DNA of 64,000 nt. It comes from Biomphalaria pfeifferi. Its lineage: Eukaryota. The notes beneath the pieces were generated by a model that worked only from the letters and a program-made list of their open reading frames with translations, did no database searches and was not told where the DNA came from. Location: contig JASAOG010000079.1 of assembly GCA_030265305.1 (NCBI GenBank), forward strand, positions 237,331 through 301,330, read 5' to 3'. Positions 2,452 to 62,660 of the stretch are shown here, one piece after another. Numbering within the stretch: the first letter of the stretch is position 1; each line of letters opens with the position of its first letter. The translations under genes and the position numbers were made by a program.

Positions 2452-2816
2452 CTGAATGATAAAAAAAGTAAAGATTTTTACTAATGAAGGAGTACATATA
2501 AATTACTGTAAATATAGATAGCAAAGTCTTTTTAAGACAATGCACATTTTGTGTCCATAGACAGCTTTAACTTTACAGAGTAATAGGGTGAATATATTTT
2601 TAAAATTATGCTAGACACTTTGTCTTGAAAAAGGGTATTGCTCTAAAAACATTTATTAATGATAAGCAGCATGAAAGGGAAAAAAAAAAAGGACTTGCAG
2701 TTCTAAGACAGTAAGAATAACATGTTGAGGTAACACACTAGATCAGCTAAGATAGACATCAGGACATCTTATACTAGTTTCTAACAAAGTACATTTTGAA
2801 AATAAAATAAACATAC

Positions 2817-4207: not shown

Positions 4208-6639
4208 CTGTATTACGAGAAAAAAATGTTAGAGAAATTAAGCAATATCAATTATTCAAGCATACAGTTTGAAGACAAAGTGAAATAACAAAAAACTAAA
4301 TCTCAAGCCTAGGAATACCAATAGCAATTATACCTATATGAATAATGTACCACATCACTCCATAAGACAAACCAAATTATAAGGAGAAAAAAATATTCTA
4401 ATCTAATAATAATCTAAATGATAGCTTTAGATATTTTATGATTCTTTTAGGTGGATTTCACATTTTTATAGGTAGACTATAAACTTCTGCACTCATTCTA
4501 AATTTTTGGACTTGACAAAATTAATAATAAGATGTTACACGGGTTGCGACGTGTTTGGATGTGACAATGTCAAGTTAAAATGTGACATAAATTAAAAATC
4601 AGTGTTTTCCCACTTTTTAGCTTCAATACCCCATGAGAATAAATGTCATTATATAAAAATAATTTTTCTCAAATTTAAATTCAGACATATAAACATGGAT
4701 GCAAGCAACAGAGCCCCATTTTTCCTGCAAGGGGGAGGGGGGTCGGCAACCCAAAAAAAAAAAATGCAAGCATGATGCCTCTTATATCTTCACAACATAA
4801 ATAAAACATTTAGCGCTATATATATATATATAAATATATTTATATATATATATGATATAAAGCTAATTTTCTTTTCAATAGATGTCAACCAATTAAAAAA
4901 TACTTTCAAGTATCTCTTAGGACAGAACTACTCAAAATTTTCCAGCTCAGATATCCTTTTACAACCCATACGATATTGGCAGACCCCTGACGCAGCCCGA
5001 TTTGTCTGCCTAAATCGCCTATTGGTAAAGTCACTAGCATAATCAAACTATCCGACCCCTGTGTATTTTTTGGCTCTGTGCTATTCATAATACAATAATA
5101 TACAAAGACTTTTCATTCACTGTTGTCGCATTGCTAATAATTTTCTGCTCATTTATGTATTATACATTTGTTTTACGTTCAAACTCTTTTGGTTCATAAT
5201 GATTTGTTACAAGATGACACTTCAGTTTAGCAGGTTTAAAACTTTTGTTCGATAACGCATTGAAACTGAGAAACATTGCTGCTGTTCACTGTTGCCTTTG
5301 CATGGTAGAAATACAAAATGTAAATATTCAGTAGCACATTTACATGGTGTGGCCTCTCTTACGTCATCATGTCTCATTTCATTTCCACAGTTTACATTAC
5401 ATACTTAAGCTTCAAAAATTTATCCATAATCTAACGGTTAGATGGGCATGTGAATAACAATTTAATAAACATAAATCACCACTGTATAATGTAATAATTA
5501 ATCATATAATGTGCATGATTAATAGCCAGACTGATAGTGTTGCTGAGTCTCAGGGTCATCGGTTGGAAACAGCAAAATGAAATTTGGCCTACTTTCTATG
5601 AATGGCATGATAAATATGAGAAATTAATAGAATGATGGATAAGTTTATAAAATAAGTACATTTGATTTTCATGCGCAAAATATAATTCTACTACAGGCCT
5701 GTTATTAATCATTGTTGTTTAGCCAAGATGTATCAACAATAGTCAGAATAGTTCGTAACAGACATATTAAACAGTAGTGAGTGGCGAGTTGATCATTATT
5801 CAATTTAACCGATCGGATTTAATTGGCTTTCAGTGAAGAAGTTATTATATAATTGTATAAATTTTCATCTTTCTGTGGACCCCCTCTATGGTCTTCTTGC
5901 GCTACCTCAGTGAGAACCACTGTTATAGGAAATAGCTGATTTAATTGATTGAGAAACACTGTAAAATAATGATAGTTGCTTGCAATTATCATGAAGAAAA
6001 AATTAGGAAAAAAAAAAGTTAAACTTTTAATGATGTCAAGAATAAGGTTGAAAAATTTTTTTAAAATTACCTTTGAAAATTAGTGCTACAGATGTGTACC
6101 AAAACCTTCTCATGGAATGAATGTATTATTTCGTTAGGCATGACTAACTCTGAAATCAGAAATGTTTCAAATAGAATGATTTTCTTTCTTTTTTTTTTTT
6201 TTTTAAAAAAGCTTATATCAACTAACTCTGTCTAACAGATTGAAAAATAAATTTGGTATGATCACAATACCCTTTCAAAGGCATACTATGTATGTATCAA
6301 TCAAGAACCTAGGATAACCTCTGTAATATGATAAGGCCTAAGCCAAGCCTCCTGTAGTGCCCTGGTAAAAAATCTGCCGTGTACCACGGTGCCAATTAGC
6401 TCCAATACAGTTCTAGTGACCTAACAGATATACGTCTCCCTGCAGCTTACCAAGAAAGAATTAAACAATGTTCCAATGTTCACAGCTTTATTTCACTTTT
6501 AAACACTTGACTGTGAACTGTCCATCACACTATCATAACATCTATTCTATTAAATTCTATTCCAATACATTATCTTAACATTTATTACACAGTTAACAGT
6601 CTTCCTTTCATTCTTTTTTTGACAATTTATAAAAGTGGA

Positions 6640-6879: not shown

Positions 6880-8010
6880 CCTAGTAAAGGCTAGTGTAGA
6901 GGTTATCTAATGTAGATCTAAAGAATCTAGTCAACTAGAGACAGTCTGGTCTTATTTTATATTGACTATAGATCTATAATTAAATATTGTATTATAATAT
7001 TATACTACTAGTTTAGCCTAGTAGAGTATCTATAGGTCTATATAATATAGAATAATAGATACTGAGGGAGATAATAGTAAATAGTGCTCTAGAAACTATA
7101 TATTATATAAGGGGAATATAGTAAATAAATTAGTACAAGATCTATAGGTCAGTATAAGTAATTATAATAACTATATGATCATCTTAGTCTTAGTATCTAG
7201 ATTCTAGATCTTTACTTAATCTATATTACTAGATCTAAATGATCTATATATAATATAAATAATATAAAAATCTAATTCTAACCCGGGCATGCTACCCTGC
7301 CTCATAGTGGCGCCCAGGTGGAGGAAACGATTAGGCTAAAGGGTAGCAAAACAAGACTCCCGTGGGGGTGCGAGAGCAACATGATTGCACTGCGCAGAGT
7401 TGTAAAAAAGCTCCCACAACCTTGTCACATCCAGGCGCTGTTCCTCAAGGGGCCGTTACATAAATGGCTTGTCCCGCATGGTTAGCCTGGTATAGAAAAG
7501 GAAAATGGCGGGGGTCTTAGTGTACGCTGCCTCTTGCCATGAGTCTGACCCACCTGCCAGACAGAACAGTGTACACTGTTCTCATTCAGGCCGGTGAGAG
7601 AGAGCTCTTGTTCACTTTTGCTGGCCTTCGTAGACTAGTCACTAGTGACGTAAGTCTAAGTGACAGTAAATAGATCTAGATCTATGTCATGAGTAAGCAT
7701 TAAGTTGAGTAAGACTAAGTAGATCTAGTGAGACTGGGTGTGAGTAGTGTTTTTTTTTAGAATACTGTAGACGTAGTAGAGTAGTGAAAATAGAGTCGGA
7801 CTCTAATACTAGAGACAGTTACTGACAGAATTACGGAATTACTATTATTTTATTAGCCGACTCCAGTATACTGTCAATACTGACTAGACTTATTGATCTA
7901 GATCTAGAAATCTGGGTATCGAGATGGACTAATCTAGTCTTAAGATGATAAGTTAGTCTAGATCTATATTATTATATAATCTAGATCTATACAAGACTAG
8001 TAGACTCTTA
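6880..8010. repeat. Low-complexity 'tagatcta / tagtcta / agactag' palindrome-rich block of about 1.1 kb
   Basis: Dense short palindromic words. Compositionally similar blocks occur at 33990-34330, 57420-57700 and 58060-58270. Confidence 0.6.
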
Positions 8011-8146
8011 CAAGTACAACTCTTGCAACCTGTTCGATTTCCTGTACACACATTTTCGGATAAAGATCCACATTTCCGTAAACTTTGGTGTCTAGATCTA
8101 CAAGTGCCAAGTGTAAGATTTCATGCACGGAACAATCTTTTTCTAG

Positions 8147-8149
<3 letters not shown>

Positions 8150-8216
<67 letters not shown>
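8150..8216. repeat. (AT)n microsatellite, about 33 units
   Basis: Direct reading. Confidence 0.95.
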
Positions 8217-8219
<3 letters not shown>

Positions 8220-8789
8220 CGGTTCTGTTTTTTTTTTCTATAGTGAAGATTTACAAACTTCGTGACGTGATTGAAAAGTAATTTCGCTTATAATAATACG
8301 CCATTGTTTTATAAACCAGTTATTGTAGGTTGTATTTTCACTATGAAACAACCCATAAAAATGGATCTTGAACAAAAGATGCTTATTTGCGTTATTTTTT
8401 GTGTTATTTTTGTGAATTCATTACATGTAAATGTTAATATGTAATTTTTTTTTAACTTTATCGATTAATTCACATCAATCTGATTTTAGTCCATGAACTA
8501 ATAATATGAAATTTGGTAAATCATTTATGTATATTAAAAATAGTAGTGGACCAACGATTGTTCCTTGGGGTACACCAGGTACGTGGGGGGGGGGGGGGAG
8601 GCTAAGTGTACGACATCGTTCTGACCATATTTAACGCCCAGGCTGGAGGGGTGGGGACTACCGAGTGTGCGACATCATTCTGACCATATATAACGCCCAT
8701 GCGTTCATCTCATTTCTATGAGCTATGGGTTTATTAGAGGAAATTTCTATAAATCAAATAAGAACAAAAAACTAAAATGTTATTAAACC

Positions 8790-11267: not shown

Positions 11268-11500
11268 ATTCGCGGTGGCTGAGCTGTAGAGCACTTGGCT
11301 TCCGAAGCGGGGGTCTCGGGTTCGAATCCTGGCGAAGACTGGGATTTTTAATTTTGGTATCTTTGGGCGCCTCTGGGAAAATTAGAGGCGGTTGGTCGTT
11401 GTGCTGGCCACATAACACCCTCATTAACCATAGGCCACAGAAACAGATGACCTTCACATCATCTGCCCTATAGATCACAAGGTCTGAAAGGGGAACTTTT
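11268..11500 (+). mobile_element. tRNA-derived SINE, family C (gcggtggctgagc...gggttcgaatcc...ccctatagaccacaaggtctgaaagggga)
   Basis: Three copies. ORFs 11194..11478 and 11255..11473 are spurious. Confidence 0.9.
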
Positions 11501-13254
11501 TTTTTTAATGATAAACTGCATTAATCCTATATGGTCTTAAGGAGAAGAGACAGGAAACTAAGGTGAAGAACTATCATTTATTGTAACAAGTATAAGGACC
11601 AAAGTTTACGTAAGCCACTGCACATTATAGACCAAGCTTTAAACACACAGTTAGAAATTGCTTGTAGTAGACTCCTCCCCCATTTTTGTTCCGGTTGCCT
11701 GAATGTATAACACCAGCTAACTTTGCAATGACGCATACATTGATACATAACACGAACACATATGCGCTTAGTTCCTTGGTCATACATTTAATTGTGTAAT
11801 GATAGGCTCAAGTTGTTTTCCGAGAAAATGTATCCCCCCCCCCACCATTCTTCCCAACAGCCCTTCCTTCTTTACATTCCTCTACACAAGATCTTGGCCG
11901 ATAATCTGATCTGTGTACACAAGGTGCTTTAAAAGTAGAATTTTTGACATGATGGACACTAGGTCTTTTAATAGAGACCATTATAGGCCTACAGTAGTCT
12001 TACAATTATATTGTTATCGGTGACAAGGTTTTTGTGGGGACACGAGTTGATGTTGACCACGACTTGGCCTAAATTGTGCCGATGTGCCTAAAATCAAATC
12101 AGTTGATGTTGAGCGTAGGTGGACACACAACTGAACTGATTATGGCTTAGTGTTGGGTGAAGAGGATTACTTATTTTCTTATACCCCCCCCCCCCCCCAA
12201 AAAAAAACGTGTATCAAACCTTGTTTAATGTTCAAAGAAATTATTGCATAGTAGGCCTACAAGTGTGTCTATGAATAATTTACTTCCTTCCTTATTAGAA
12301 GAGCACACTTTCGGCTTTGTCACGCCAATGCACTAACACACACAGACTACAACACACGCGCACACCAAGTAGGCCTGCGCACACCAAGTAGGCCTACGCA
12401 CACAGAGTGGATGCAAGATGTGTATTCTGTTTAAATCTTATTTCACTTCTCTGTCATTTCTTCATTGGCCAATAATCGCATTCAAGTATGTAGCAATACT
12501 CTCCAGCCCCGGCTCGTGTACCTACTGAATTTTATTATTATTATTATTTTTGTAATACAATCATGTTGTGTGTGTGTGTGTTATTAACCATTTTTTTTTG
12601 ATGGGGGGGGGGGGGGGGGCTGAGGTCCTCAATCTTTTATGTCTTTTTTTTTTAATTAATTAATTTATTTTTCGAAATACATTTGTATAATGGTTCATTG
12701 CTATTGTAGCATGCGACTATGGATCATCTTAGAGATAAGATGAATGCCTGGGTTTTAAGCTATATGGACGAAAGGATGTCGTCATTTATTGAATTTGTTT
12801 TCATCACCTTTATGCTCTTTGCACGACTTCAACATTACTTTAGCCTAGATAGTGATGAATTAGTCTACTTTCTACTTAATTATGTCATTACACAAATCTA
12901 GATTGTGATCATAGTGATCAATACTCAGGCAATTTTTTTTCCAGCGTTTTTAGTCTACTTTAAAAATAAAATCTAGAATTAGAATTAAAACCCAAATAAA
13001 CCAAAGGCTAAAAAAAAAACACTAAAACTAATAAAAACTACTTTATTCATGGTAAGCCTGTGATGTAAGCTTAAGATTAAAAAATATCTAGTGTTATGTT
13101 AAATGAAAAGTTTTTCTAAAATCTCCATAGGCCTACTGACGAAATTATTAAAACATAATAAAGCATAACAAATAAATAAATAACAAACAAATAATAAATA
13201 AAACATCAGGGTTTGTTAAAAGATATTTTTACCAACAGAACAAGAGCAGAAAAC

Positions 13255-18867: not shown

Positions 18868-19005
18868 GCAGTGCTTTTTTGTGACGTACGCACCGGCACC
18901 TTTTTCAATGTGGGGAAAAATAATTTTTTTTATACGTTTATCATTAATTTATTAGTAGTTTAAAGTTAGACAATCCATCACTTAGTACCGGCATCTAAAA
19001 AAAGC
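18868..19005. mobile_element. MITE with terminal inverted repeats CAGTGCTTTTTT…AAAAAAAGCACTG and internal 'ccggcacc / gtaccggc' motifs
   Basis: Ends are inverted complements of each other. The same family occurs at 59215-59412 and, inverted and partial, at 57100-57228. Confidence 0.65.
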
Positions 19006-20367
19006 ACTGATTGTAAATGTTCTGCATGAAAGATTTAGCCTTTAATAATCAACGTTACTAATGATTCAGACAGGCTTGTCATGTATACTTCTTTTTATAA
19101 AAAAAAGGACAGTAAAACAAGAGTATAAGATTGTGTGTCAGTGCAAATAGTTTAAGATTGTTTATCACCTCAAAGTTATAAGTTTGTGTTTCTCTGTAAA
19201 GAGCATAAGATTGTGTATGTAGCTTTGAATGGAAGTGCAATAAGTGCAGACGAATTAACTAGGGAAAATATGTTTTAGTATTTTTACCTAAAGCCAACTA
19301 CAGTTGTTAATAATCCTGATAATTCAAAACTCTCAATGATAATATTTCTTTTTACTAGCCACATCCTAAAGAGAGGGGGAAAAAAAAGTCTTAAATATTT
19401 TTTTCATAATAAGAAACCACAATAAGAATTTGAAATACTCTCCAACATTTTATTCAGATGATCCAGTAACAAAGTTTTAACATTATTATAAGTTGAATCA
19501 GAAAATTATGGGATAATTCAATATTTTTATAGTCATGAGTGGAGTAGTATCAAATATAACATCTTTATTTTTTATGAATAGGCTTCAAAGTTTTGGGCAA
19601 TATATCAAATAGAATAGCACAATATGTCTTTAAAAGATATTTTTTTAGACATTAAATAGAATAATACAATGATTTTGTACAAGTCATCAAACAGAATAAC
19701 TTACAACTTTTGTACAAGACATCAAATAGTAGACAATAATTCTGTACACTACATTAAATAGAATAAAATGATAGTTCTGTACAAAACATCAAACATAAAT
19801 ATTCTAGCAATATAAATTTGGTTTTCAGTTCCAATCATATGACATAGATGACAATAATCAAGTAATAAAACAGATTTATAAAAGAAAGGTATCACACACA
19901 AAATATCTTATCTGGACAAGAATATAGAACTACATTGGTTTGCATACCAGTAATATAATTGTCAACAATTTATAAGCTCATTTAAAAGATCATTCTAAGC
20001 CTTCAGAAATGAAATAACATAGAAGACAGTCAGACTTTGTAGAAACTAAACACTGAGAGGAGGGGAAATGAAGGGAGGAAGAATAATTGTAACCAATGAT
20101 CATAGAGAAAAATCTGCATGAATCAATTCATGAATGTTTACATTCAGCTTTGATGGGTTTGTTCTCTAAGGCTTATTAAGAGATTACAAAAAAACAACAA
20201 CATGATTCTCAAGGATAAAAACATTACTATTCACATTATATAAGCATGATTGTGTATACAAGTGTTTGTAGAAGATACAGCATATTTTGACTTTTGTGTT
20301 TTAGCTTCATTTTATTTTCAGTTTATTGAACTTAAAAGGATTGATTGTATTCTAAGTGTATAGAAGA

Positions 20368-24925: not shown

Positions 24926-25497
24926 AGAGTTAGTGCGTCTTATACGGCAAATACACATTTTACATGCATTAAAACTGCCCCCAACTTTGTGTGGCGCTTA
25001 CTCGCAGTCCTTTCCTTATGCAGTGTGTGCTGCGGGCTGGATTTGGGGCACGTACTGCAGGCTGTGGTGACTTCTGTGACCCTCCCTGCACGGCCAGGCT
25101 GTGTGTGTTCGGGCTTCCCTCTCCCTCCTATAGCGCGCCATGCCCCCCTCCCGACAGTCTAACCATGTGCTGCACAGGCATCATGCTGAGCTTACTGCCG
25201 GTACACACCGCCCTCCCTACGTCATAATGTGCCGTCTGGGTAGATCACAGACAACGTGTATGGTGTATGTGAGAAAGTGATCAGGCGGACCAACCAGTAC
25301 AGTATTTGGTTCAGAATCTTTTTTTTCTAGATTTTCCTCCTTTAAAATTGGGTGCGTCTTATATGCCGGAGCGTCTTATACGGCAAAAAATATGGTATAT
25401 CAGCAATATGCAAGTTAAGACCCGCGGACTGGGGGTAATATCTGTCTAGTGCATTTATAAAACTAAAATATTTTTTCTATCAAAGAATCTAGTCTAT

Positions 25498-25790
25498 GGA
25501 GGCGCGGTGGCTGAGCGGTAAAGCGCTTGACTTCCGAACCGGGGGTCCCGGGTTCAAATCCTGGTGAAGATTTGGATTTTTAATTTCGGGACCTTTGGGC
25601 GCCTCTGAGTCCACCCAGCTCTGTTGGGTACCTGACATTAGTTGGGGAAAAGTAAAGGTGGTTGGTCGTTGTGCTGGCCACATGACACCCTCGTAAACCG
25701 TAGGCCACAGAAACAGATGATCTTTACATCATCTGCCCTATAGACCACAAGGTCTGATAGGGGAACTTAACTTTTTATAATCTAGTCTAT
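25498..25790 (+). mobile_element. SINE family C copy
   Basis: Shares 5' and 3' ends with 11268. ORF 25489..25683 is spurious. Confidence 0.9.
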
Positions 25791-26920: not shown

Positions 26921-27206
26921 TGTCTTCCGAAACCTTTTCAAGGGTAATAAGCCTCTCCTGTCTGAAGCTACTGGTGCCAGTTACAGGCATTAGCCCTTCT
27001 ACTGTTAGTGTTAGTTCAGCTGGACCCAATATCTGAGCCACATTAGGTTCAGCAGTTGGACTAGTTGTCATAGGTTATTTGAGATGCATGCCATTCGAAG
27101 CATTTTATAGGTAGTGGAGTGCTTGTATCAATTACCACTTCCAGCAATACATTTTTTTTTAGTTTTTTTTATTAAATATTAACATGTAAAATATAAGTTG
27201 TCTAAC

Positions 27207-27285
27207 CTGTCTTCTCCTATAGCTGTCATACTTATGTTTTATTTTCCATAATGCAGCTGCAATCAGGAGCAAAGATAAAAAGCAG
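27207..27285 (-). CDS. ATRN: ATRN-like exon: transmembrane C-terminal half plus stop-transfer (CFLSLLLIAAALWKIKHKYDSYRRRQ)
   Basis: Within ORF 27159..27470. Acceptor gtttgtttcag|C, donor GACAG|GTTAGA. Matches human 'SCFLSLLLVAAVVWKIKQSCWASRRREQ'. Confidence 0.85.
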
Positions 27286-27504
27286 CTGAAACAAACAAAA
27301 AAATCAATATATCCCAAAATTGGCAAAGTTAAAAATAAAATAATCAGAAAAAGTAGCCTAAGTATTTTTGCTTGTTGATTGATTTGAAAAGGGAATAACC
27401 TTATGTAAATCCATAGTGTAATTTTTTTTTTTGGCAGAAACACTAACCAAGAAAATAAATGATAATACATTAATGATTTACATTTTTTGGTTATTTATTT
27501 TGTT

Positions 27505-32739: not shown

Positions 32740-33015
32740 TATTGGGAGGAGTGGTCACTGAGTGGTAAACCGCTTGGCTTCCAAACCGGGGGTCCCGGGT
32801 TTGAGTCCTGGTGAAAACTAGAATTTTTAGTTTTAGGATCTTAGGGCACCTCAGAGTCCACCCAGCTCTAATCGGTACCTGACATTTGTTGGGGAAAAGT
32901 AAAGGCGGATGGTCGTTGTGCTGGCCACATGACGCCCTCGTTAACTGTAGGCATATAAACAGATTTCCTTAGATCAATGCCCTATAGACCATAAGGTCTG
33001 AAAGGGAAACTTTCC
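32740..33015 (+). mobile_element. SINE family C copy
   Basis: 'ggaggagtggtcactgagtggtaaaccgcttggcttccaaaccgggggtcccgggtttgagtcc...ccataaggtctgaaagggaaac'. Confidence 0.9.
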
Positions 33016-33189
33016 TTTTTTTTTTAACACTTAAATATTAAATGAGATAACTAAAGAGTTAGAAACACTGAGCATTAGTATATTATAGAAAAAGCTAGAA
33101 TTTTAGAGTTAATTAATAATATCGTTTTTAGTGCTGGCACTTTAAAAAAAAAAATGTATTTAAGAAATTCATTGAAGCAAAGCACTTAC

Positions 33190-33454: not shown

Positions 33455-33600
33455 GTTGCCTGAGCTAGCCAGGAAAACCAGTGACTTGGCAGAATTTAAG
33501 TCATTGGTTAATATGCATGACTAAATGCATGACGCGTGGGACGTAATCATCTTCTTTTTTGAAATAACGTTTGTATTATATAAGATAAGATAAGATAGAG
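33455..33600 (+). mobile_element. LINE 3' tail copy
   Basis: Carries 'ccatggaatgggttgcctgagctagccaggaaaaccagtgacttggcagaatttaagtcattggttaatatgcatgactaaatgcatgacgcgtgggacgtaatcatc...(gataa)n'. Confidence 0.85.
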
Positions 33601-34957
33601 ATCTTTGGAAAATACAGTACAGGAAGGAATAGCTATTTTAATTTCTAGATGTAACTATGGTAAAATAAACATGTTATTTTTATGAAAATTTTAACATCTT
33701 ATTCTTTGTCGCAGTTATCTATGTAACTGTATAGTAGAATTATTTCTCTATTTGATAGTGCGGCGTTGTTCACTATATTGATGACGTCATTACACTATTT
33801 CTTGTGTAGACTAGGAGAAGGAACTTTTGTTGCTTGTCACAACTTCTAGTGACGTAAAGTTAGTGTGTGTGTGTGATTTGCGTCATTTATCGTCAAGTTC
33901 AGTCTCTCCATCTTGTGCTGTATAGGGGCAAGCCATGTTTTGAGAGCTCTTGAATTTCTCCTTGGTTATTGTTACTGGATAGCCTTACGTTTGCCATGGA
34001 CATGTTCTTGTTGGATTATCTTGACCCCTGTTTAGGGTGAGTTTTATTTTTTATGGTATAGTTTTTCTATTTGAATTCGTTCGTATTTGTAAGTCTATAT
34101 TTAGACTAGATCTAGATGATTAGAAGAATCCTTTTCTTTTATCTTCTATAGGGTTTTAGCGACAAGTCTAGGTTTTGGTCGTAGTCTCAGTCAAGACTCT
34201 ATTTCCAGTTTTGGCGTCAAGTCTAAGTAGTGATCTTAGCTTGGTGTCAAGTCTATGTGTAAGACTTGTTTATCCAGTCTCAATTTTCTATATTGAGAAT
34301 ACAACTTTAGGTCTACAGTCTACAGGACTGAGGCCTTCATCTCACTAATGTCAATTAATCGTCTGGTGTTCAAGTTGACTTTTTCATGAGTCTGAGGTTC
34401 AAGATGCCAGATTGCGGGTTGCCTTGGTCAGACCTGATGTTGCAGTGTGAACTGTGAATTTTTTGGAATTATCGTCAGTGAACAGTATTGGATTTACAGA
34501 CTAGATCTATGTGGATTACCAGTTGTTGCGTTGAAAGAATGTTTGAACAACTTATGATGAATATGTTGAGGTAATGATATTGTTCAAATAATTGATCATT
34601 GATATATCACAAAGAAAATAACTATATCATATTGGATTAGAGATATTATACATATATTTATGGATATTGATACTATTATTATCATTCATCATACATCAGT
34701 TCATTTGTAAATATATCACTATAATAAATGTTTATTGTTATTTAACATTATACACTTAGTTTATTAATTTAATACAACTGTATGTGTATGGTGTGCTTGT
34801 CAGGCTGAACTTGGGCCAAAATATTATAAGTTCAGAAAAAGAATAACAATAACACACATTGAATTAAAACTATGATAGATACAATAAAACACAAGAACCT
34901 GACATTCTTCAAAACTTTTTTTTTGGACACTTTACATTATATGGACAAAATACTTAC

Positions 34958-45839: not shown

Positions 45840-46990
45840 TTCCCGTGGTTGAACAGTGTCAGTCCCAGCTGTGACCTACATATTTTGCCACATCCAGGGC
45901 AAGCATAACCATTGTCCGCAGGTGGTCAATTTAGATTTTCTTTTCGCCGTCTGCGTTTGTCCTCGGCAGCAGATTTTCTTTTGGTCTCAAATGTGTATCC
46001 CATGGCCTTCGTGAGTGACCTCCAGCTGTCTCGTTCTGAGGCCGCATGCAACCAGGTGCTCTCTTCTATGTCAGACAAGGAAAGTTGACGCCTACGCTAG
46101 TCTTTGAAGCGTTTCCTTTTGGCGCCTCTGTTAGGTCAACCACCTTTTAGCTCACCAAAAAAGAAGGCTTTTGGCATACGTTTGTCTCCCATATGGGATA
46201 CGAGCCCTACCCAGCGTAACTGTCGGACCAAAAGAAGTCCCTCTATTCTGTCCATACCAACGTTCGCAAGGACATCGCTGTTTGTAGTGCGGTCTTGCCC
46301 CCGTATGTCCATGATGGAGCGCAAGCATCTTTGGTGGAAGCGCTCAAGAAGTCTTAGATGTTTCCTGTATTGTGTCCATGTCACAGAGCCATACAGAAGG
46401 GTTGACAGAACCACCGCCTGGTAGACAATGATTTCTGTAAGCAGGCGGAGCGATCTGTTCCGCCAAACTCTCGCCTGAAAGCGCCCAAAAGCGCTACTGG
46501 CCCTGGCCAAAGGTTTATCAACTTACCTTGAAAGTGAGGCGTCATTTGAAACTATCCTACCTAGATATATGAAGTGGTCTACCACATTAAGGGGCTGTGT
46601 TGTTTTATTGGGCGACTTCTGTTTTCCCGAGGTTTATAGATAGACCAAAAGAGGCGGCAGCGTATGCAAATTCATTTACCGCTTTCTGGAGGTCATGTTC
46701 ATTGTGAGCTAGCAGGGCGCAATCATCGGCATAGAGAAGCTCCGTTATGACCATCTCCTTTGCCTCTCTGTTAGGGCGACACCACCCATTTTAAATATTT
46801 CAGCGAGAAATCCATCAGAGCCAAGTGCCTTGTGTTTTTTTAGTTTAGATATTGCTGTCTCAATTTCCTCAGATGTCAGTGGGTCGTCGAGCTCCTCTCT
46901 CATAGTTTTCTGGGGGACATTTGCCAGCAATTCCTCCGATACGTGCCTTTTATCCCCAAACAGCATACTTAACAAAATAAATATAAATTA
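45840..46990 (-). mobile_element. CR1-like LINE, internally deleted: RT N-terminal region, then C-terminal conserved region, then 3' end
   Basis: ORF 46136..46510 (YGSVTWTQYRKHLRLLERFHQRCLRSIMDIRGQDRTTNSDVLANVGMDRIEGLLLVRQLRWVGLVSHMGD) is a typical CR1/L2 C-terminal block. ORF 46745..46975 is the RT N-terminus. The 3' end is the reverse complement of the CR1 tail seen at 35405. Confidence 0.85.
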
Positions 46991-47917
46991 TCTATGTTGG
47001 TCACACTCTGTACTGCAGTGCTAAACAACTGAAGAGAACAGGACACTATATTTCCTTGGCACAGTCTGCAAAAGAGCTTACAGCTCAGCAGCAAAAAGCT
47101 GGCTAGAAGAAGAAGAAGAATCTTTGTTGGTCATAGCTTAAAACATTTTAAATTATATCTATTCTATCTCCATTTACAATCATAAGAGAAAAAGAGAAAG
47201 AACCATCCTTTTTTGTGTGTTCCCTTTCCTGTGTTAACAAATAGTTTAAAAAAATTAATTTAAGTGCCCTTTCAGACCTTGTGATCTATGTGGCAGATGA
47301 TGCAAAGCTAAGCTGTTTCTATGGCCTATGTGTTAACATAGGGTCTCATATAAACAGCACACCAAAAGCCTTTAATTTCCTGAACTAATTACAGGTACCC
47401 AGCAGAGTTGGAGTTTCCTAAAAAATCCAGACTATATAAAAATCCCAGAATTGAACTCAGGTTAAGCACTTTATCACTAGACCATCATGCCTATTTAACA
47501 AATTGTATTACTTTTTTGTATACATAGAAATAGTGAAATAATTTGCATGTTGTTTTTTTTCAAAATACTATTTGTAGCCAACCAGACATTCTCTTCAAGG
47601 AAAGAGGTCAGGGTTGTCATTGAATTTTATAAAATAATGTGACACTAAAGATGAATAACTCAATAAACAACAACCAGAAATAATAATATAGAAAAGAAGT
47701 GCTAGAACAAATGTTATCAGAAATTAAGAAGCAAACTAGCGAACAGAGTGATCTAGTAAAAATTTTTTTAACAAATGTAAAGAAGAAAAAATGCTAATAT
47801 GATGATATTTAAAAACATGAGTACCATCTCTCTAATGTTCACAAGTCTAAAAAAAAACCATACAAAGCTATAGTCGATACAAGGTGTCTGTACATGCTAA
47901 AAGTCCTTAATACTTAC

Positions 47918-53772: not shown

Positions 53773-56501
53773 TTATTTATAATAATTAAAAAAATATTTA
53801 CTACAAGAGAAGACTGTAAAGTAATTCCACTATTTTATATTGTCATCCTCTATACTGTCTAAAAACCAGTCAAACAATAAGCTATTGTGCCTCTAATTGC
53901 TGTCATCCTGCAACAGTCTAATTGAATCATTTGTCAATGCTAACTTGTTTTAAAAATCATCCCTCACTACATTAAAAACCAATCTCATTTCAATCCAAAT
54001 TTTTTTTGGCCTTCACAATTTTCTCTTATTAGGTATATAAGACACCTGGTTGCTTTGTGAAAAAAGTTTCTTTATAAAGTTAGTTGTTTTTTTTCATGAG
54101 TTTATTTATAATGTCACATACTTGTAATTAAAGGATAAATATTTAAAATGTTAACTTGTTTCTATTAAGTATGGTGACTTGTTTGAATTTTTCTTTAAAT
54201 GGCCAGTAATTTTTAACTTTTTCTTTGTATGTTTCTTTCTTTCAAAGTATGGATGTTCGTTTAAAAAAAAAAAAGATTGTTGGATAATACTGCCTCATTC
54301 TCAAAAAAGATGAATACAAAAATGTTACTGTTTAAAACTATGTTATATTCTATCCAGTGAGACCATGTTTTAAGAATGAGAAACATAACAAGAACTTACA
54401 TGTATGATATATTAAAACCTGGTAATGTGAAGGCAGCATCACTATAAAAGTGAATAAACACATACTGGCTTGACATTTTAAACTTTAATTCAGGATTTGA
54501 CTTTATCTCACCACTGAAAGAAAGAAATCAGTTGATATGTTTTGGAAACCAAATATAATTAATAATTTGTTTATGAATAAGTTAAAAAATTACACTATAA
54601 AAATCATTTATAAATTTCAAATTAAACTTTTATAGTTTGGAACATATTTGAAAGATAAAATACTGTTAATTACTAATAGTTGAAGGTTCAACAGGATCTT
54701 ATATTGTCTACAATGAAATTTATAACCAATTACCTTAATATAACATTGGCTTTTTAGTAGGAAATTTAGTAGAGTAACTATTAAACAATAGTTTCATAAA
54801 AAAAATATATATAAATATATTTATTTATTTGAAGATTATTATATCCCTACCCAAACCTGATGCAGGAACACAGGGGATGGTGGTGGGCGGGGTTTGAACC
54901 CGGTTTCTTTAAATAAATGTATAGAATGGGTCTTACCCATTTAATTCAACAAATTCTGTCATCTTGAATCTTTACAGCTGATTGTCAACAGGCTATTTCA
55001 GGAAGTCATAAATTGTGCACCCTAATAAAACTCACCTCTATTTAAAAGAACACACCAACAGGCATGATTTATGTTGTCACCAGAGTCAATCCCTCTAGAT
55101 GACATTAGTTTTATTATTTAAATATCCATATTTTTTTAACTTTTGTGTCTGAACAAATTTTTGCCAATAGGGTAGAGTTATTATTTGCCAATAGTTAGAA
55201 GTATTATTATTTATTTGTTGCTATTGTATGGAAATCTCTAAACATAAATATGAGACCCTGTCTCAATGTACCGAGGCTGCAAATATCTTTTTTCTTTCCT
55301 TATAGCTGTTATTTTCTTTCTATTTTATAATGCAACTGTTCGTAGCACAACTATCCTCAATGGTATTAGCCCATTTATGCTGACTGATCCATTATTGACA
55401 CACCAACCCCAAGGTAGTTATTTATACCTTACTGCAAGGCCACTACGGGAATGGGATTTTTGTTTATTCATGTAAGCAAGCGTTCTTGGGATACTGATAC
55501 CCCTTATCATGCTGTGCACGGTTTGTCACAGCATTCCAGAGATTGGTGCCCTGTGGCTTCCTAAAAAAAATAATGAAATTTTCTGTGTATCTAAAGGCAA
55601 AGGAAATATAAATTTCCTGAATTATGTCATGTACTAACTATTTCTTTTCCAATTATTTATATGTAATAGTGATGCTGTCATGCCGTAAAAAGAACCTAAA
55701 TAAGTTATCATCATTGTATTAGTTATAAGCTTCTAATTTTGCATGTTCCATTTTTGGAACACTAGGCAAATCCAGTACCAGTATTACTAATAACAGCTAT
55801 TTCATTTAAACCTATAGAATCTCTCTAAAATCTCTGTCTACACCTCCCATGAAATGATTGTAGACTCTGATTATGTTTTCATCAGCTTTGTCTACACCTC
55901 ATATGAAGCACTAGTACAAATTTTTCCACCTAGAATAGAAAGCTACAGTAATTCTTTAACATGACTTGTTTGTCAAGAATTCTCACATACTTTTGCATGT
56001 GTTTGTTTTTGTTGTTTATATTATAGAAAAATCATTTTTCCATTTGTATAGATCAATCTAATTATCATGCACACAACTATATTTTATAATAAATTATACA
56101 AATAAATTGTAAAAACATAGTCCTTTAAATGTCTAAAAACATGACTTGTTTATTTCACTCATACTAAAATTTATTTAAAGACAGTTTGATCATTAATGTT
56201 ATTTGTCTTTAAAATACAAAACAAATAACATCAATAAAACATTAAAATGTTAAACTAGTAAAATTTGAAAGTTTGCTTTTTTTCACCAGTTGAAACTGGA
56301 ACACTTATTTAATGTCAAATTAAGCTTCAATGTCATCATAATATAAATGTAATTTTTTAAATGACTGTATCTTATCTTATATTATGCAGATGTTACTTCA
56401 AAAAAGAAGATGATTACATATAATTTATTTTTTTCATAGTGTTTTTATTTATTTATGAGTCATGTATTTACTTAAGTGCTTATGTAGTGACTCATTGTTA
56501 C

Positions 56502-56714
56502 CTGTATGCTGCTACTAAAGGAGAAAATGATGAATCTCCATCATGTATGTACAAGTGATCCCAAATACATTCTGTTATAAACTCATTCAATTTAAAATGC
56601 ACTCTAGAATGTTCTTTTTCTGCTTTCAGAAGCCAACTGCAAGTTGACTCTTGAGAATAGTTTCCAGAACCATCATAGAGAACACCTTGGACCCTAAACT
56701 TGCCATCTCTTGAG
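56502..56714 (-). CDS. ATRN: ATRN-like exon 2: CUB domain N-terminal half (SSRDGKFRVQGVLYDGSGNYSQESTCSWLLKAEKEHSRVHFKLNEFITECIWDHLYIHDGDSSFSPLVAAYS)
   Basis: Acceptor cttttag|C, donor TACAG|GTAACA. Phase is continuous with exon 1. Matches human 'GPGNYKYKTKCTWLIEG...FNHFATECSWDHLYVYDGDSIYAPLVAAFSG'. Confidence 0.85.
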
Positions 56715-57099
56715 CTAAAAGAAATGATAAAAAGTTATGGTTTGGGATTCTGTGGAGTACTTTAAATAATGTTAAATTTAAAAGAAAATATAATTATATA
56801 TATACTAGGTCACAGTTTAGATTAAAAGACATTTTAATTAAACATTTTTTTCCCAAGCACCCTTACACTGAACAGATTGTAGAGCTATAGCAACAAAATG
56901 AAAGACTTGGAATATTTATAAATATACAGTTTAAGTCTTATATTTATATAGAAATATAATATATGTATATAACATATATTAATTATTATATAACATCTAA
57001 AATTTAGAAGTTATTTATATATTCTATTAAAATTTTTATATTATATTATTATTATTAGAATAGATCTAGAATAGAATCTTAGTATTAGTTATTGCCTAA

Positions 57100-57228
57100 C
57101 TTTTAACTACTAAAAATTAATAATTTAATATTATAAGTTAAAATATATGAAAAGTAATAATTTTTTCGAAGAGGTGTCGGTATGCCGAACCGGTGCTTAC
57201 CGGCACAAAAAAAGCCCTGTGTATATAC
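57100..57228. mobile_element. MITE, same family (inverted, partial), 0.6 kb downstream of attractin exon 1 in intron 1
   Basis: The reverse complement aligns to 59250-59345 (…gtgccggtaagcaccggttcggcataccgacacc…aaaagttaggcaat). Confidence 0.6.
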
Positions 57229-57801
57229 ATATATATTGTTACTTGTAATAAAAAAAAAACACAAGAAAACGTGCACAGGCATCTGTGTCTTGCAGCTGTC
57301 AATTCTTTTTTTTTTAAGTTGCATTGAAAAAAAAACAACTTCTTTGGTCACTACCAGATCGGCCCATTTGGTGCCGGCCCACCTGGCATTTGCCCATATA
57401 GTTATAGCCAGTCCGCCCCTGTATTAGTATAGGAATATAAATATAGAGTCTAGCAACTAGCAGGAGTCTAGTATAGACTCAAGACTAGTCAAGACAATTA
57501 AAGACTGACTAAACTCACTAACCCTAAACTCGCTTTAAACTAGAAGTAGTCAGTTACACTAAAGTTACAGACAGTAGAGGTAGTTAGGTAGAAGACTTTA
57601 AGTTTAAGAAAAAAAAAAGCCTCTTTGACTCTATAACTAAACTATAACTCTAAGTCTAGTTTCTCTAGTCTAGATCTTTCTAAAATCTAAGTCTGGTTAC
57701 ACTAATTACAGTGACAGTGTAAGTGATCATCATCATGATAGTTTACATTTACAAGTAACGCTAACACGGTGTATTGACGGTATTTAGATCTAGTAATTTA
57801 C

Positions 57802-58037
57802 CTGACTTTTCCTTTGCATTTGTTACACAACTCTCCATCCCATCCTGGATCACAAAAGCATTTACTCTTATTACAAATACCTTGTTCACAATTTACACAG
57901 CTGGATGACTGAGAATTAACAAATTCCAGGAATATTGATACAAATATTATCCCTACAATAATGTGTGAGAAATATAATACATCCAAAGTCCTTTTGCACT
58001 TTCGTCTATTATTTGGTAAACATATTGAGGCAGCCAT
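57802..58037 (-). CDS. ATRN: ATRN-like exon 1: start codon, signal/anchor and first EGF (MAASICLPNNRRKCKRTLDVLYFSHIIVGIIFVSIFLEFVNSQSSSCVNCEQGICNKSKCFCDPGWDGELCNKCKGKV)
   Basis: ORF track 57798..58037 on the minus strand. Hydrophobic stretch followed by a 6-Cys EGF. Donor AAAGTCAG|GTAAAT, phase 2. Matches human 'CDRPCVNGGRCNPGTGQCVCPAGWVGEQCQHCGGRF'. Confidence 0.8.
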
Positions 58038-59214
58038 TTTGAAATAAAATTAGGAAAGTTAAATTTAGTAGTTACTAGGTTTTTAGTTATCCTAGTTTCT
58101 CTAACAAATCTAGACTAGACTAGATCTAGATTTAAATAGACTGATAGATTTAGACCAAGACTAAACTCGAGTTGAGACAGAATTTTACTGTACGCTATCT
58201 AGTGTATAAACAGAGATTCTAGATTCTATGTGTATTTTAGACCTAGAAACTAGATCTATATTAATATATCATGATATTTTTTTACTTGCAGCAACATAGT
58301 TCATTAGATAAGAAGATTTACTACAAACATTCACCGTTCATTTCCCACAGCTGTCGAGTCAAGACTTGGGATTTCTCCTCATATCTTGGGATTTGGGTGT
58401 TGCACAATTGAGATCTTGGAACCGCGAATCAGTAAAATCCAATAACCATTATAATAAATTATATGATAAAAAACTCATCAAAATTGTATTTACAACAATA
58501 ACCGCCATATAATAATAAAAATATGGCTTGTCTTTTATCTCATACTTGATAGTCTACAATAAATAGCCTATAGAGACATTTCTGAAATTTTATACAAAAT
58601 AAGGTGCGTTAAAAATATGAGACGGCGAAGATCTTCAGAAATCAATCATTAAATGATTACTACGGAAAAGGATATAAATGGTAAGGAACATATAATGAAG
58701 AATTAAGATAAATAGAAATATATTTGAAAACTGAAATGGGTACCTTTGAACATTATGTAGTGCGAATGTCAGTGCGGAGAACGGTCATTTTGTAAAATTA
58801 AATTGTTTAAAGTTATCCAAAATTAACAATCTCACTACTAGCGTAAGCATTAATTGAAAGCAAGGTCGAAGAAGTGTTCAATTTTTGTTGTTGTTGTTTT
58901 ATTTAAAATTATTAAATAATAGTGTAGTTTCGCTAACCCATAGTGAAAATGTGAATTTTGATTAGACATTTGCATAACTATTTTATCTAATAATTGAACA
59001 TTATTAAACGTTCAAAGTTTTTGCTAGATCTATTACCTAATTTCCTAACATCGAACCAAACTCGAACTTTAGATCTGAATGAACCGAATCGTCATCGAAT
59101 CGAACCGGAACTTAAGTCTGACCAATCTCTAATTTTTTTTCTGCTTTCATTTTTTTAAACCATATGCCGAGGAAGTCTTGTCAATGCATGACTCTACTGT
59201 CGACCTACGCCCAT

Positions 59215-59412
59215 GGCTTTTTTTTTTGTGACGGTACGCACCGGTACGGCGTACCGGCACCTTTTTGAAAAAATATTACTTTTCTTTTTTAGTTTAACGT
59301 ATATTATTAATTTTTAGTTGTTAAAAGTTAGGCAATCAACTACTGAGTACCGGCACCTTATCAATGAGTACCGCACCTCGGGCGGCGGTTTACAAAAAAA
59401 AAAAAAAAGCAC
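59215..59412. mobile_element. MITE, same family
   Basis: 'ttttttttgtgacggtacgcaccggtacggcgtaccggcacc...gagtaccggcaccttatcaatgagtaccgcacc...aaaaaaaaaaaaaagcactgcc'. Confidence 0.65.
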
Positions 59413-59449
59413 TGCCTACGACTATTATTCGACTAGTGAGGCGACTGGC

Positions 59450-61500
59450 TTGTTACTAGTATTTATTATTAAAGATACTGGACGAACATAGATTTAATTG
59501 ATAACACTGCTAATAGGCCTACACATGAGCTTTACTACAAAAACTTTATTGTTATAGTTAAAAAAATCACTCAAACATCATATAACTTCAATATTATACT
59601 TCTGGCCTTACTTGATCTAATTGGACTTAAACTGGGACTAATTCAGAATTCCACCCTAATTACCCCTACCTGACCTACCCTTGCTCTCTCCCCTCCCCTG
59701 TCAGTCTCTAGTGTTTGGGCAAATAGTTGTCTCCCCGCAGTTGTCCCTCTTGTGCAGATGTGACTTCTGCTACTTGTGATGTTTCTAAATGCTAACAATG
59801 GCAGTAACACACATCACAAAGTCAGCTAGCTCTATAATACGCGGCTCTACGCCTGTTTCTGCTTCACTAGGACTACTGGAGCTGAGTACGAGGATGTAGA
59901 CGTCGTAATACTCCCCATTTCTAATAATGTGTCAATTTTTAAAAATATCCCTTCATGATGTAGGAAAACTGGATAAATCTTGGCTCTTGTGGGCTTTGTA
60001 TCAGTAAGTTGAATAGTCTGTGTTATAGCGGTCATCTACCTGGTCGGTCTGTAAATATTGGTGCCCATTGTACCAGCAATTTATCGATCTCTTGTCGAAC
60101 TGGATATTGAAGATGTGATGTGTCGATATCTTTCACAGTTTCACCGCTTTCAATAACTGGGCATGGCATTTCCTCTGTTTCATCTCTTGTTTCTGTCACC
60201 CAGACTCTTTATTATCGTGTGTGTCTTGCTTAGCATTAAGATGAATTTCTTTTACATAGATACCTTCTTCGCCTATCTTGATTAAATCACGTATTGTTGA
60301 GGCTTCACTATTTATAATTTTTCTTAGATTTGGATCATTCATCTGTTCATTGATAAATATTTGTTTTAATTTGACTTTCAGTGAAGTTTTCATTCGTCAC
60401 TTTTATTGATTATCATTCATTATTTCGTTATTTTCTGTTTCTGTATCTTCATTTTCATCGTTTGAACGAGTTTGTGTCTTATCTTATGTATCCATCTTCT
60501 GGTTTGTTTGTAAATTTTGTACTTGTTCTGCTTTCGTCTGTTGTAATTATAAAACATTTATCGGTGCAGTTTGCTTTCCACTTGTTTAAATCATCTTCTG
60601 TGCACAGTTTAGCACTCTTGATACAGCCAATGTTGTCTGTTTTATTATCTAGTACTTAAGCATCGTGCCAACCACTGATGCATGGCGTGTGTATGTTGAC
60701 ATGAGCGACCAAATGTGTTGTTACTTGGCCAGTATAACTAACACATTCTTATCTTCTTCCAGTGTATTCTTGTAGTTTGACAAATTCTTTTGCAACTAAA
60801 ATTGCGGTTGCGCCTGTGTCGTATAGCACGTTTGTCATCTGTTCTCACACGAAGCCTGGATAGATTTGCGGTGTATTGGTGTGTTTAGCAGCCAAGGCTC
60901 GATCTCTCGGTTTGTTGTTCCAACTTTTACTGCGTCGATTGTGGAAGCAAGTCTCGGTAGTGTGGTTTGTTCTTCCAAAGATTTGACACTGCAAGTGAAC
61001 TTTCTGTCGGTTCATCCTGTATTCTTTGTCTTTGTAAATGTTTGTTGGCTCTTTTCTCTATCTTTCTCTATTCTATATCAAGGGGGTTGCACTTTGCATT
61101 CTGGGATTGTTGCTAGCCATAAAAGCTGATGCAATATCCGTATTGTCTTGTTCATACTTCATTGGGGTGAGCAGCTTTATACTGTCGCAACGGCGATATC
61201 AAGTGGTTGATGGTCTTTGGTTCTCGTTCCGTGACGTATGTTCTAACATTGTTGTTAAATGCTTCTAACACTGCGTCCATGATGATGTGTTCTCTCAGAT
61301 TTTGTTGTGGTGCTCAACTTTTGACAGATCCACCCATTGGTTGAAGAACATTGACATGTTGGTGACGAATAGGTATTGTGGATCGTCATTCGGCAATGGC
61401 GTTGTTTATTTCCGCTTCTTTCTGTATTCATGGTTTGTGGAGCCAAATTGTATCAGCAAGGCTTCTTTCACAGCGGCATAGTCTTTCCTTTCGTCTTCTC
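59450..61500 (-). mobile_element. Degraded LTR-retrotransposon (Ty3/gypsy- or BEL-like) pol fragment: aspartic protease plus RT N-terminus
   Basis: Minus-strand translation at about 60700-60860 gives 'LYDTGATAILVAKEFV' (DTGA protease active site). ORF 59847..60035 gives 'LLEMGSITTSTSSYSAPVVLVKQK' (RT entry motif). Plus-strand ORFs in 60381..61841 are antisense. Confidence 0.6.
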
Positions 61501-61699
61501 ATAGTTCATAGCTCTTCCTTTAAGACGCCCCATAAGGCTTCTTGTCCAGTCTGTTTGTGGCAGGTAGCAGGCTCTTGCAAGGTCTTCAAATCTTAGTCGA
61601 TTCACTCTTTATTGTTTTCATCATATTTTGACATCTTGTCCATTTGTTTGTATCTGTCAAATTTTCTGATTTTGCTGTTATTTCTGTGTTGTTTGTTTC

Positions 61700-62660
61700 A
61701 CTTTTAATTCTAGCTCCAAGATTTCTTTCTTTTTATTATCTTCTTGTCTTCTCCTTTCAGAAAGCATTGAAGTTGGTAAACGATATCGCACTGATGCAAG
61801 TGTATTCAACGCTCAGAGACTCAAGTCAAGGACCAAGGTAAACTATGACTGCATCAGAGACCTGCTATTCGCAGATGAATGTGCCCTAAATGCCTCAAAC
61901 GAAGAAGACATTTAAAAGAGCATGCCAACGCCTGCACAAAATTTGGCCTCACTATAAATGTAAAAAAGACAGAAGTGCTGCACCAACCACCTCCAAATAA
62001 ATCTGTCACAGAACCAGACATTCTAAAAAAGTTTGTCTATCTGGGAAGCACTATATCAGCAAACGCTAACCTAGAAGATTAGGTAGACTTCAGTATTGCG
62101 CGTACCAGTGCTGCTGTTGGCAGACTTCAAGAACAAGTGTGGCAACGAAGAGAACTCAGCATATCCACAAAACTGAAAGTCTACAGTGCTGTAATTCTCC
62201 CGTCTTTCTTATATGCATCCTGAGTCCTGGACCCTATACTCCCGTCACATTAAAAAGTTAAATCCTTCCATACACGCAGTCCATAAGGTGCGTTGGTCTG
62301 ACCATATACCAGACACAGAAATCTTAGAGGTGTCCAACATGAACAGTATCAATGCGACAGTGAAAAGGTCCCAACTTCCATGGGCGGGACATGTCTGCAT
62401 GCCGGACAATCGCCTTCCCAAACGACTTCTACAGCTGAGAAGCACTAGCTCTTGATCGCTCCTCAATGCGTGAAGATTTGAAACAAGAAGAGTGGCAAGG
62501 GTGAAAGAGCACTGAACCAACAAAAAGCTGAGGGATGAAGCAGGTCTATCTGCAGCTGACCAAATCTACCCATGTCACGTATGCGGCAGTCATCTTCGAG
62601 TCCATAGGAAATGAGAAATGTGCTCATCTTCGTTCACGAAGGAGGAGCTATAGATATATA
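61700..62660 (+). mobile_element. CR1-like LINE 3' portion, degraded
   Basis: ORFs 61879..62082 and 62213..62455 (KLNPSIHAVHKVRWSDHIPDTEILEVSNMNSINATVKRSQLPWAGHVCMPDNRLPKRLL). Terminal 'YPCHVCGSHLRVH' zinc finger. Confidence 0.75.

Follow-up and report, generated by a model that had tools for sequence, protein, structure and literature searches.

The 64,000-nucleotide stretch of the Biomphalaria pfeifferi genome analysed here (contig JASAOG010000079.1 of assembly GCA_030265305.1, positions 237,331 to 301,330 of the forward strand; hereafter the window) is AT-rich, CpG-depleted eukaryotic DNA, with 33% G+C and a CpG observed/expected ratio (o/e) of 0.44. It holds a reverse transcriptase of the long interspersed nuclear element (LINE) type (RVT_1, 6.6e-36), repeats resembling short interspersed nuclear elements (SINEs), and long introns. 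An attractin-like gene occupies the minus strand, starting near 58 kb and extending to 27 kb or beyond, and its 5' end is the subject of this analysis. Minus-strand stop-free stretches and exons were joined by hand, and selected open reading frame (ORF) pieces were submitted to Pfam. We observed matches to EGF families, CUB (7.7e-14), Beta-prop_ATRN-LZTR1 (5.1e-65), and PSI (3.4e-14), together with a weak match to GBD_ATRN (1.6e-3) that lies below the curated cutoff. An exon resembling a transmembrane segment was read at 27162-27494. The domain set expected of the attractin family, for which EGF-CUB-EGF, a kelch-type beta-propeller, PSI, laminin-type EGF, GBD_ATRN, and a single transmembrane segment were tested, was present. 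Because of the Pfam matches on these joined stretches, the original prediction of an attractin gene was right. A C-type lectin domain between PSI repeats is a feature of vertebrate ATRN; no Lectin_C match was found among the selected ORF pieces put to Pfam. Protein searches for an orthologous locus, with exon 1 plus CUB and with the beta-propeller as queries, gave no match, and exact ORF look-ups likewise gave none.

The coordinates first proposed for exon 1 of this gene are exact, as judged from the ORF, the donor, and the in-frame join to the CUB exon that begins at 56714 (Table 1). The 78-residue translation of exon 1 starts with Met and a basic stretch, followed by a hydrophobic segment (signal or anchor) and then the first EGF-like Cys pattern. 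An in-frame stop (58050-58052) is located four codons 5' of the ATG with no AG between them, and exon 1 is therefore the first coding exon. Intron 1 contains a truncated miniature inverted-repeat transposable element (MITE), a solitary second end of the hAT-like type, and one of two CTAG-rich tracts that flank the exon.

Table 1. Features at the 5' end of the attractin-like gene, with related tracts and MITE copies elsewhere in the window (TIR, terminal inverted repeat)
Feature	Coordinates	Strand	Remarks
First coding exon, attractin-like gene	57802..58037	-	ATG 58037-58035; 78 codons + 2 nt; donor AG/GTAAAT
Intron 1	56715..57801	-	1,087 nt; splice sites read from sequence, frame continuous into CUB exon
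Exon 2, N-terminal part of CUB	56501..56714	-	Lower boundary approximate; preceded by TTTTAG acceptor
Tract B1, CTAG/AGTCTAG/AGAC-rich, cryptically simple, intron 1	57420..57700		Starts ~100 bp 3' of exon 1 donor
Tract B2, CTAGATCTAG/TAGAC-rich, cryptically simple	58060..58270		Starts 23 bp 5' of ATG
Unique upstream DNA	58271..59211	-	CpG o/e 1.16; presumed unmethylated promoter region; 4 AGATCT vs 0.18 expected
Complete MITE, 203 bp	59212..59414	+	TIRs CATGGCTTTTTT / CAGTGCTTTTTT; subterminal GTACCGGCACC repeats
Truncated MITE copy, intron 1	57086..57219	-	One TIR kept, CAGGGCTTTTTT at 57219; homology fades ~57070-57097
Solitary hAT-like terminus CAGGGGCGGACTGG	57408..57421	-	Directly abuts tract B1
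Third MITE copy, 141 bp	18869..19009	+	Perfect 12-bp TIRs; duplication ATTGTAAG/ATTGTAAA
Tract A1, vocabulary as exon 1 tracts	6880..7285		CTAG 10 vs 1.2 expected
Unique core between A1 and A2, 53% GC	7286..7624		~340 bp; nature unproven
Tract A2, vocabulary as exon 1 tracts	7625..8010		CTAG 12 vs 1.1 expected
Tract C, weaker, AGTCTA / GTCAAGTCTA units	34040..34330		Within attractin intron, after CRE-rich (cAMP response element) CpG-replete 33500-34040

Blocks rich in 'tctagactag / tagatcta' had been described on both sides of exon 1, and the CTAG excess in both is far beyond chance, with 8 occurrences in 57420-57700, where the remainder of the window predicts 0.8 (P = 2e-6), and 10 in 58060-58270, where it predicts 0.6 (P = 1e-9). 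Over background, CTAG was enriched 10-13 fold in the tracts, TAGA/TCTA approximately 6.6 fold, and AGTC/AGAC/ACTA 3-6 fold. The tracts at 6.9-8.0 kb and those around exon 1 share this vocabulary. A 4-mer log-odds model built from the 6.9-8.0 kb tracts alone recovered the exon 1 tracts, and the reverse was also true. With the ordinary (TATC)n and (AT)n microsatellites, which were also flagged, set aside, both models singled out three loci in the 64 kb: 6.8-8.1, 34.0-34.3, and 57.4-58.3 kb. The same composition had been claimed for 6880-8010, where it is indeed present, although as two tracts around a 53% GC core rather than as one block. It had also been claimed for 33990-34330, where the 4-mer model flagged it but the signal was weaker (P = 0.05 for CTAG alone). 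Over approximately 230 nt, tract B2 has no ATG on the sense strand (0 CAT on the plus strand), so it could be 5' untranslated region (UTR) or immediate 5' flank.

The most frequent long words in the tracts were AGATCTAG, TAGATCTA, and GATCTAGA. Spacing between TAG/CTA pairs peaked at 5-6 bp, and no 10-11 bp periodicity of TAG/CTA (helical or nucleosome-phasing) was detected in the tracts. Tandem Repeats Finder (TRF) reported three arrays in the exon 1 tracts: 58108-58131 (period 5, consensus ATCTAG, 4.3 copies), 57479-57506 (period 10, 2.8 copies), and 58214-58228 (period 7, 2.1 copies). These are short and degenerate, and the tracts do not form a microsatellite in the strict sense of a 1-6 bp unit repeated head to tail in several perfect copies. 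Instead, a few short motifs and permutations of them are locally over-represented in no regular tandem order, which is the mark of cryptically simple sequence, or degenerate microsatellite, a concept said to go back to Tautz, Trick, and Dover in 1986. As in such sequence, the over-represented permutations recur at 5-7 bp spacing without defined ends, and the loci are non-coding and have no homology beyond their shared vocabulary. The tracts differ from typical examples in that their unit is self-complementary (CTAGAT yields TCTAGA, AGATCT, and CTAG), an unusual motif class, and in that they are paired around unique cores.

Window self-BLAST (word 11, E 1e-5) revealed no tract-to-tract similarity between the three loci beyond low-complexity self-overlap, and the tracts had no match in 506 kb of metagenome loci. 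A dispersed repeat or satellite family was ruled out, as no alignable similarity exists between copies. An inverted-repeat search within the tracts returned arm pairs of 35 nt or less with 71-93% complementarity, all seeded on one 8-mer; the longest pair, at 35 nt, was 71% complementary. In single-strand folding, 57420-57700 performed no better than its shuffles (z = +0.49), while 58060-58270 performed modestly better (z = -2.6), owing to local hairpins such as ATCTAGACTAGACTAGATCTAGAT. No units bounded by TIRs or target-site duplications (TSDs) were seen in the tracts. These results do not support the earlier suggestion of a family of short foldback elements.

Two MITE copies lie close to exon 1. 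The complete element upstream, which had been placed about 1.2 kb 5' of the ATG and in opposite orientation to the intronic copy, begins 1,175 bp from the exon 1 ATG and is flanked by an 8-bp target duplication, CCTACGCC (59204-59211) and CCTACGAC (59415-59422). The copy expected at 57100-57228 in intron 1 is present and belongs to the same family but is a fragment with one TIR, located at 57086-57219. The intronic and upstream copies are 83% identical over 129 bp in opposite orientation. Because of the 17% divergence between them and the truncation of one, both appear to be old insertions, and polymorphism between haplotypes would not be expected. The solitary terminus CAGGGGCGGACTGG has no partner end in the window. 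It closes a GC-rich solitary segment (57262-57421) situated between the truncated MITE and tract B1.

An 8-bp target duplication and short TIRs beginning 5'-YARNG are the signature of the hAT superfamily. Complete copies of the MITE carry the 12-bp TIR CAGTGCTTTTTT at both ends, with a terminal CAGTG that fits YARNG. Of 18 TIR pairs from the window and the metagenome contigs, 12 have 8-bp flanks that agree at 7 or all 8 positions. The elements also resemble hAT MITEs in their length of 141-203 bp without an ORF, their subterminal GTACCGGCACC repeats, and their many dispersed copies in several genomes, whereas the intron 1 copy, as a one-ended fragment, departs from a full element. No hAT transposase ORF with the ends of the MITE was found in the window or in the fetched metagenome contigs, and since no transposase partner was found we refer to the family only as 'hAT-like', its probable superfamily being assigned from TSD and TIR.

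The metagenome contigs were collected by a pattern scan with the MITE termini, which gave 120 loci (L001-L120). The terminal 45-110 nt of the element (CAGTGCTTTTTT...GTACGGCGTACCGGCACC) occurred in 76 of these, often at 85-98% identity and in surrounding DNA of approximately 34-49% G+C. Judged by these matches, the family is clearly common to several other host species with invertebrate-type contigs. The MITE-bearing contigs came from Joint Genome Institute (JGI) samples Ga0081606, Ga0209339, Ga0209149, Ga0056108, Ga0056133, and Ga0049107, and the elements in them measured 147-725 bp with 8-bp duplications (for example L011 1457-2104, L042 1412-1698, L097 1214-1591, and L109 2075-2522).

CpG content changes sharply at the 5' end of the gene. 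Over the attractin body (27.0-56.7 kb) the o/e was 0.25, and the first bins within the gene gave 0.0-0.3, with 0.0 in 56001-57000; the ratio then climbed to 1.2-1.6 in the 58.5-59.5 kb bins. This step most likely reflects gene-body methylation with an unmethylated 5' flank, in which case the promoter would be located in the approximately 1 kb upstream region. At 31% G+C, 58271-59211 is not a CpG island by the Gardiner-Garden definition, which asks for o/e ≥0.6 and G+C ≥50% over ≥200 bp; the segment is better called a CpG-replete patch within a gene otherwise depleted of CpG. The other two tract loci also adjoin CpG-replete bins (8001-8500, o/e 1.27; 33501-34000, o/e 0.86). A bacterial promoter and terminator scan was discarded as irrelevant to a eukaryotic locus, and a literature search for promoter tracts of CTAG, TCTAGA, or AGATCT brought up nothing beyond general reviews and noise from cloning sites.

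Within an attractin intron, the patch at 33500-34040 has an o/e of 0.86, compared to 0.25 for the gene body around it, and carries a cluster of CRE-like sites: TGACGTCA at 33782, the only perfect one in the window, TGACGTAA at 33850, and further TGACG half-sites. After this cluster, an ATG at 33996 on the plus strand runs into a consensus donor, AGG/GTGAGT, for which no compatible second exon was found. The region could serve as an enhancer or as a promoter, either nested or alternative.

Beyond the upstream MITE, an 'LTR-pol remnant' (long terminal repeat) had been reported 1.4 kb from the exon. We could not confirm it, as no protease, reverse transcriptase, or integrase domain was recognisable: the best translations from 59.6-61.6 kb gave nothing in Pfam at E of 0.1 or below and nothing in a phmmer search of PDB at E of 1 or below. 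By eye only, degenerate DTGA, zinc-knuckle-like, and SAPVVLVKQK-like motifs (gag-, protease-, and reverse transcriptase-like) can be seen on the minus strand from 60.8 to 59.7 kb. The segment 62195-62452 on the plus strand matches the end of a second retroelement ORF elsewhere in the window, at 46139-46522 (E = 2e-10), and this tail, again by eye, resembles the C-terminus of a non-LTR reverse transcriptase. The upstream flank (59600-62450) is degenerate retroelement debris.

Collectively, these findings are probably best explained by the ordinary 5' end of a minus-strand attractin-like gene, accompanied by cryptically simple CTAGAT/TAGAC DNA and old hAT-like MITEs. The first coding exon lies just 3' of an approximately 1 kb CpG-replete, presumed unmethylated region that most likely carries the promoter. 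The flanking tracts are non-coding, scrambled, degenerate runs of the self-complementary unit CTAGAT (recurrent as CTAGATCTA) and the pentamer TAGAC/GTCTA. We infer that they grew in place through replication slippage and small local duplications and then decayed by point mutation. They are not mobile elements, and no function would be required of them. The MITEs are passive, old insertions of a non-autonomous hAT-type transposon, intact 1.18 kb upstream of the gene and one-ended in intron 1.

Several observations weigh against this explanation. The perfect 8-bp palindrome TAGATCTA occurs 20 times in the window, compared to 1.4 +/- 1.2 in dinucleotide-preserving shuffles, a 14-fold excess, and never more than 5 times in any of 100 shuffles. 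Eighteen of the 20 sites are the 9-mer CTAGATCTA, which corresponds to 1.5 CTAGAT hexamer units, and 17 fall in 6.88-8.10, 33.99-34.52, or 57.05-59.10 kb, approximately 6% of the window (example sites, including some elsewhere: 6913, 7671, 7899, 8093, 29872, 34107, 34502, 45258, 57061, 57785, 58121, 58251, and 59025). Outside the tracts proper, 8 sites were counted where 1.4 were expected (P = 1e-4), and for 5 of these the nearest tract was less than 1 kb away. Single copies set in unique DNA close to the tracts, such as those at 57785, 59025, 8093, and 34502, are not obviously predicted by pure in-place slippage. The position of all three tract loci beside CpG-replete patches gave a permutation P of approximately 0.04 under random placement of three intervals, a value to be interpreted with caution as the thresholds were chosen post hoc and part of the CpG comes from the MITEs themselves.

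The orientation of asymmetric words is a further difficulty. In both bipartite loci (6880-8010 and 57420-58270), the left tract has TAGAC-type words mainly in the GTCTA orientation and the right tract mainly in the TAGAC orientation, with counts of 8:17 versus 27:8 (Fisher P = 6e-4, for words that overlap and are not independent). This flip hints at an organising centre between the tracts; in the single 34 kb tract, orientation follows no simple rule. The palindrome clustering, the AGATCT excess, and the word orientation are compatible with a real cis-motif or organising centre, and equally with a single self-complementary simple sequence that spread and then decayed. Of the three TAGATCTA neighbourhoods, one is a proven gene start and the other two are possible gene starts. 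Contigs of other species that carry the MITE family showed no enrichment of TAGATCTA over 223 kb (1 against 2.5 expected), and no CTAG tracts were present in the 506 kb of metagenome contigs fetched via the MITE. Arrays of SMAD-binding elements were also considered and rejected, with zero perfect GTCTAGAC sites.

The original prediction had also raised a possible compositional bias affecting promoter architecture, and this idea has some, if weak, support within the window: the composition is confined to three loci, each by a CpG-replete patch and one with a real first coding exon. Among alternatives to an ordinary gene start with slippage-derived tracts, an unlikely one concerns the exon itself. 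The annotated exon 1 would really be exon 2, a non-coding exon would lie upstream at approximately 58.3-58.5 kb or beyond, and both tracts would be intronic and unrelated to the transcription start site (TSS). A CpG-replete zone at 58.3-59.5 kb does lie 5' of tract B2, and a possible donor, CAA/GTAAAA, is found near 58290. However, no AG acceptor exists between the in-frame stop and the ATG, the nearest upstream AG has no pyrimidine tract, and the absence of sense-strand ATG from B2 is compatible with a 5'UTR. The nature of the tracts would in any case be unchanged.

We consider it distinctly unlikely that the CTAGATCTA-based tracts serve the 5' ends of genes in this species as functional cis-elements, whether as homotypic arrays of palindromic sites bound by a dimeric factor or as very flexible DNA that sets the nucleosomes on either side or the boundary between unmethylated promoter and methylated body. 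The concentration of TAGATCTA in three neighbourhoods, the AGATCT enrichment of the unique upstream DNA, and the orientation flip across both bipartite loci all argue for such a role. So does the setting of the loci: every one adjoins a CpG-replete patch, one brackets the proven first coding exon, and another follows the CRE cluster with its perfect TGACGTCA, ATG, and consensus donor. On the other side, there are just three loci and one verified gene start, the CpG association is marginal, and helical periodicity, perfect SMAD-type sites, and enrichment in the MITE contigs of other species are all lacking; a low-complexity context can also cluster motifs without selection. The idea draws further on documented effects of microsatellites on transcription factor binding, nucleosomes, and boundaries, with regulatory examples close to promoters, 5'UTRs, and first introns that include boundary activity of GATA repeats (review PMC5622345). 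The tracts resemble these in lying beside a first exon and a presumed promoter and in containing TAGA, AGAT, and ATAG, which are rotations of GATA. Unlike them, the tracts are too degenerate for TRF to call microsatellites (4.3 copies at most).

A more specific form of this idea is that CTAGATCTA tracts are a lineage-specific promoter-flanking class that brackets first exons where unmethylated CpG-replete DNA ends. Such tracts might then offer a dimeric factor homotypic binding sites or form a structural boundary between promoter and methylated body, with the orientation flip marking transcription or replication initiation; we regard this combination as quite improbable. An analogy is the palindromic 8-mer DRE (DNA replication-related element; TATCGATA), which with DREF characterises insect housekeeping promoters. 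Like it, TAGATCTA is over-represented and clustered near a gene start, while it differs in sequence, in having no known binding factor, in its low-complexity setting, and in its one verified gene start.

It is very improbable that repeated insertion and excision of hAT elements at a hotspot of open chromatin left the tracts behind as accumulated scars. Excision of hAT elements resolves via hairpins and leaves short palindromic footprints, and elements such as Hermes prefer nucleosome-free 5' regions. Both properties would suit the locus, as would the two hAT-like MITE copies and the solitary second terminus within 2.3 kb of exon 1. However, the MITE target duplications show no preference for CTAG or AGATCT, footprints would copy varied flanks rather than one vocabulary at three distant loci, and the tracts are hundreds of bp long with a 5-6 bp unit structure.

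The least credible proposal, and one largely refuted, is a foldback or MITE-like family whose tract pairs form inverted arms around exon 1 or the 7286-7624 core: the richness in palindromic words, the flip in asymmetric-word orientation from one tract to the other within both bipartite loci, and the somewhat better folding of B2 favour it, but the arms have no collinear complementarity, B1 folds no better than its shuffles, terminal repeats, target duplications, and homology between loci are absent, and a coding first exon with a signal sequence and EGF pattern is implausible as a foldback loop. The tract-core-tract arrangement superficially resembles that of Drosophila foldback (FB) elements, in which arms of degenerate subrepeats surround an unrelated centre. 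Unlike the tracts, FB arms are long and collinear, with defined termini and target duplications.

The core at 7286-7624, which separates the two strongest CTAG tracts, has no further copy in the window, no match in the fetched metagenome contigs, and no Rfam match; Rfam gave nothing at the gathering threshold across the window and nothing at E of 1 or below for 7150-7750. No transfer RNA (tRNA) was detected near the tracts or cores. The core contains a perfect 18-bp palindrome, GAACAGTGTACACTGTTC (approximately 7565-7582), inside a larger imperfect palindrome at 7538-7610, as well as ATG-plus-donor candidates on both strands. On the minus strand at 2746-4212 is a stop-free stretch of 489 codons in 30% G+C DNA, which holds a 39-bp tandem repeat (3752-3953, 5.2 copies) encoding 13-residue units such as SSQSIELNDKLIR. 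Pfam found no domains in this or the other ORFs near the core, and the 2746-4212 ORF had no exact match in a public gene collection. This ORF could belong, as a large exon, to a neighbouring gene on the minus strand, with a 5' end possibly at the 7.3-7.6 kb core. Elsewhere in the window, ARAGORN reported a tRNA-like structure of undetermined anticodon at 25491-25573, at the head of a dispersed repeat of approximately 250 bp that also occurs at 11271-11507, 32753-33020, and 47246-47378 and that in all likelihood represents a tRNA-derived SINE family.

In its present form the finding is of little import: a gene start correctly read, a shared hAT-like MITE family, and tracts of self-complementary simple sequence. 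Overall, the 5' end is ordinary in its architecture, and the motif is a minor lead that can be tested. Should TAGATCTA and CTAG tracts turn out to cluster by CpG-replete patches throughout the genome, this would provide a cheap sequence marker of TSS regions in an invertebrate genome that is AT-rich, methylated, and poorly annotated, and it would point to an unknown DNA-binding factor or chromatin-boundary mechanism.

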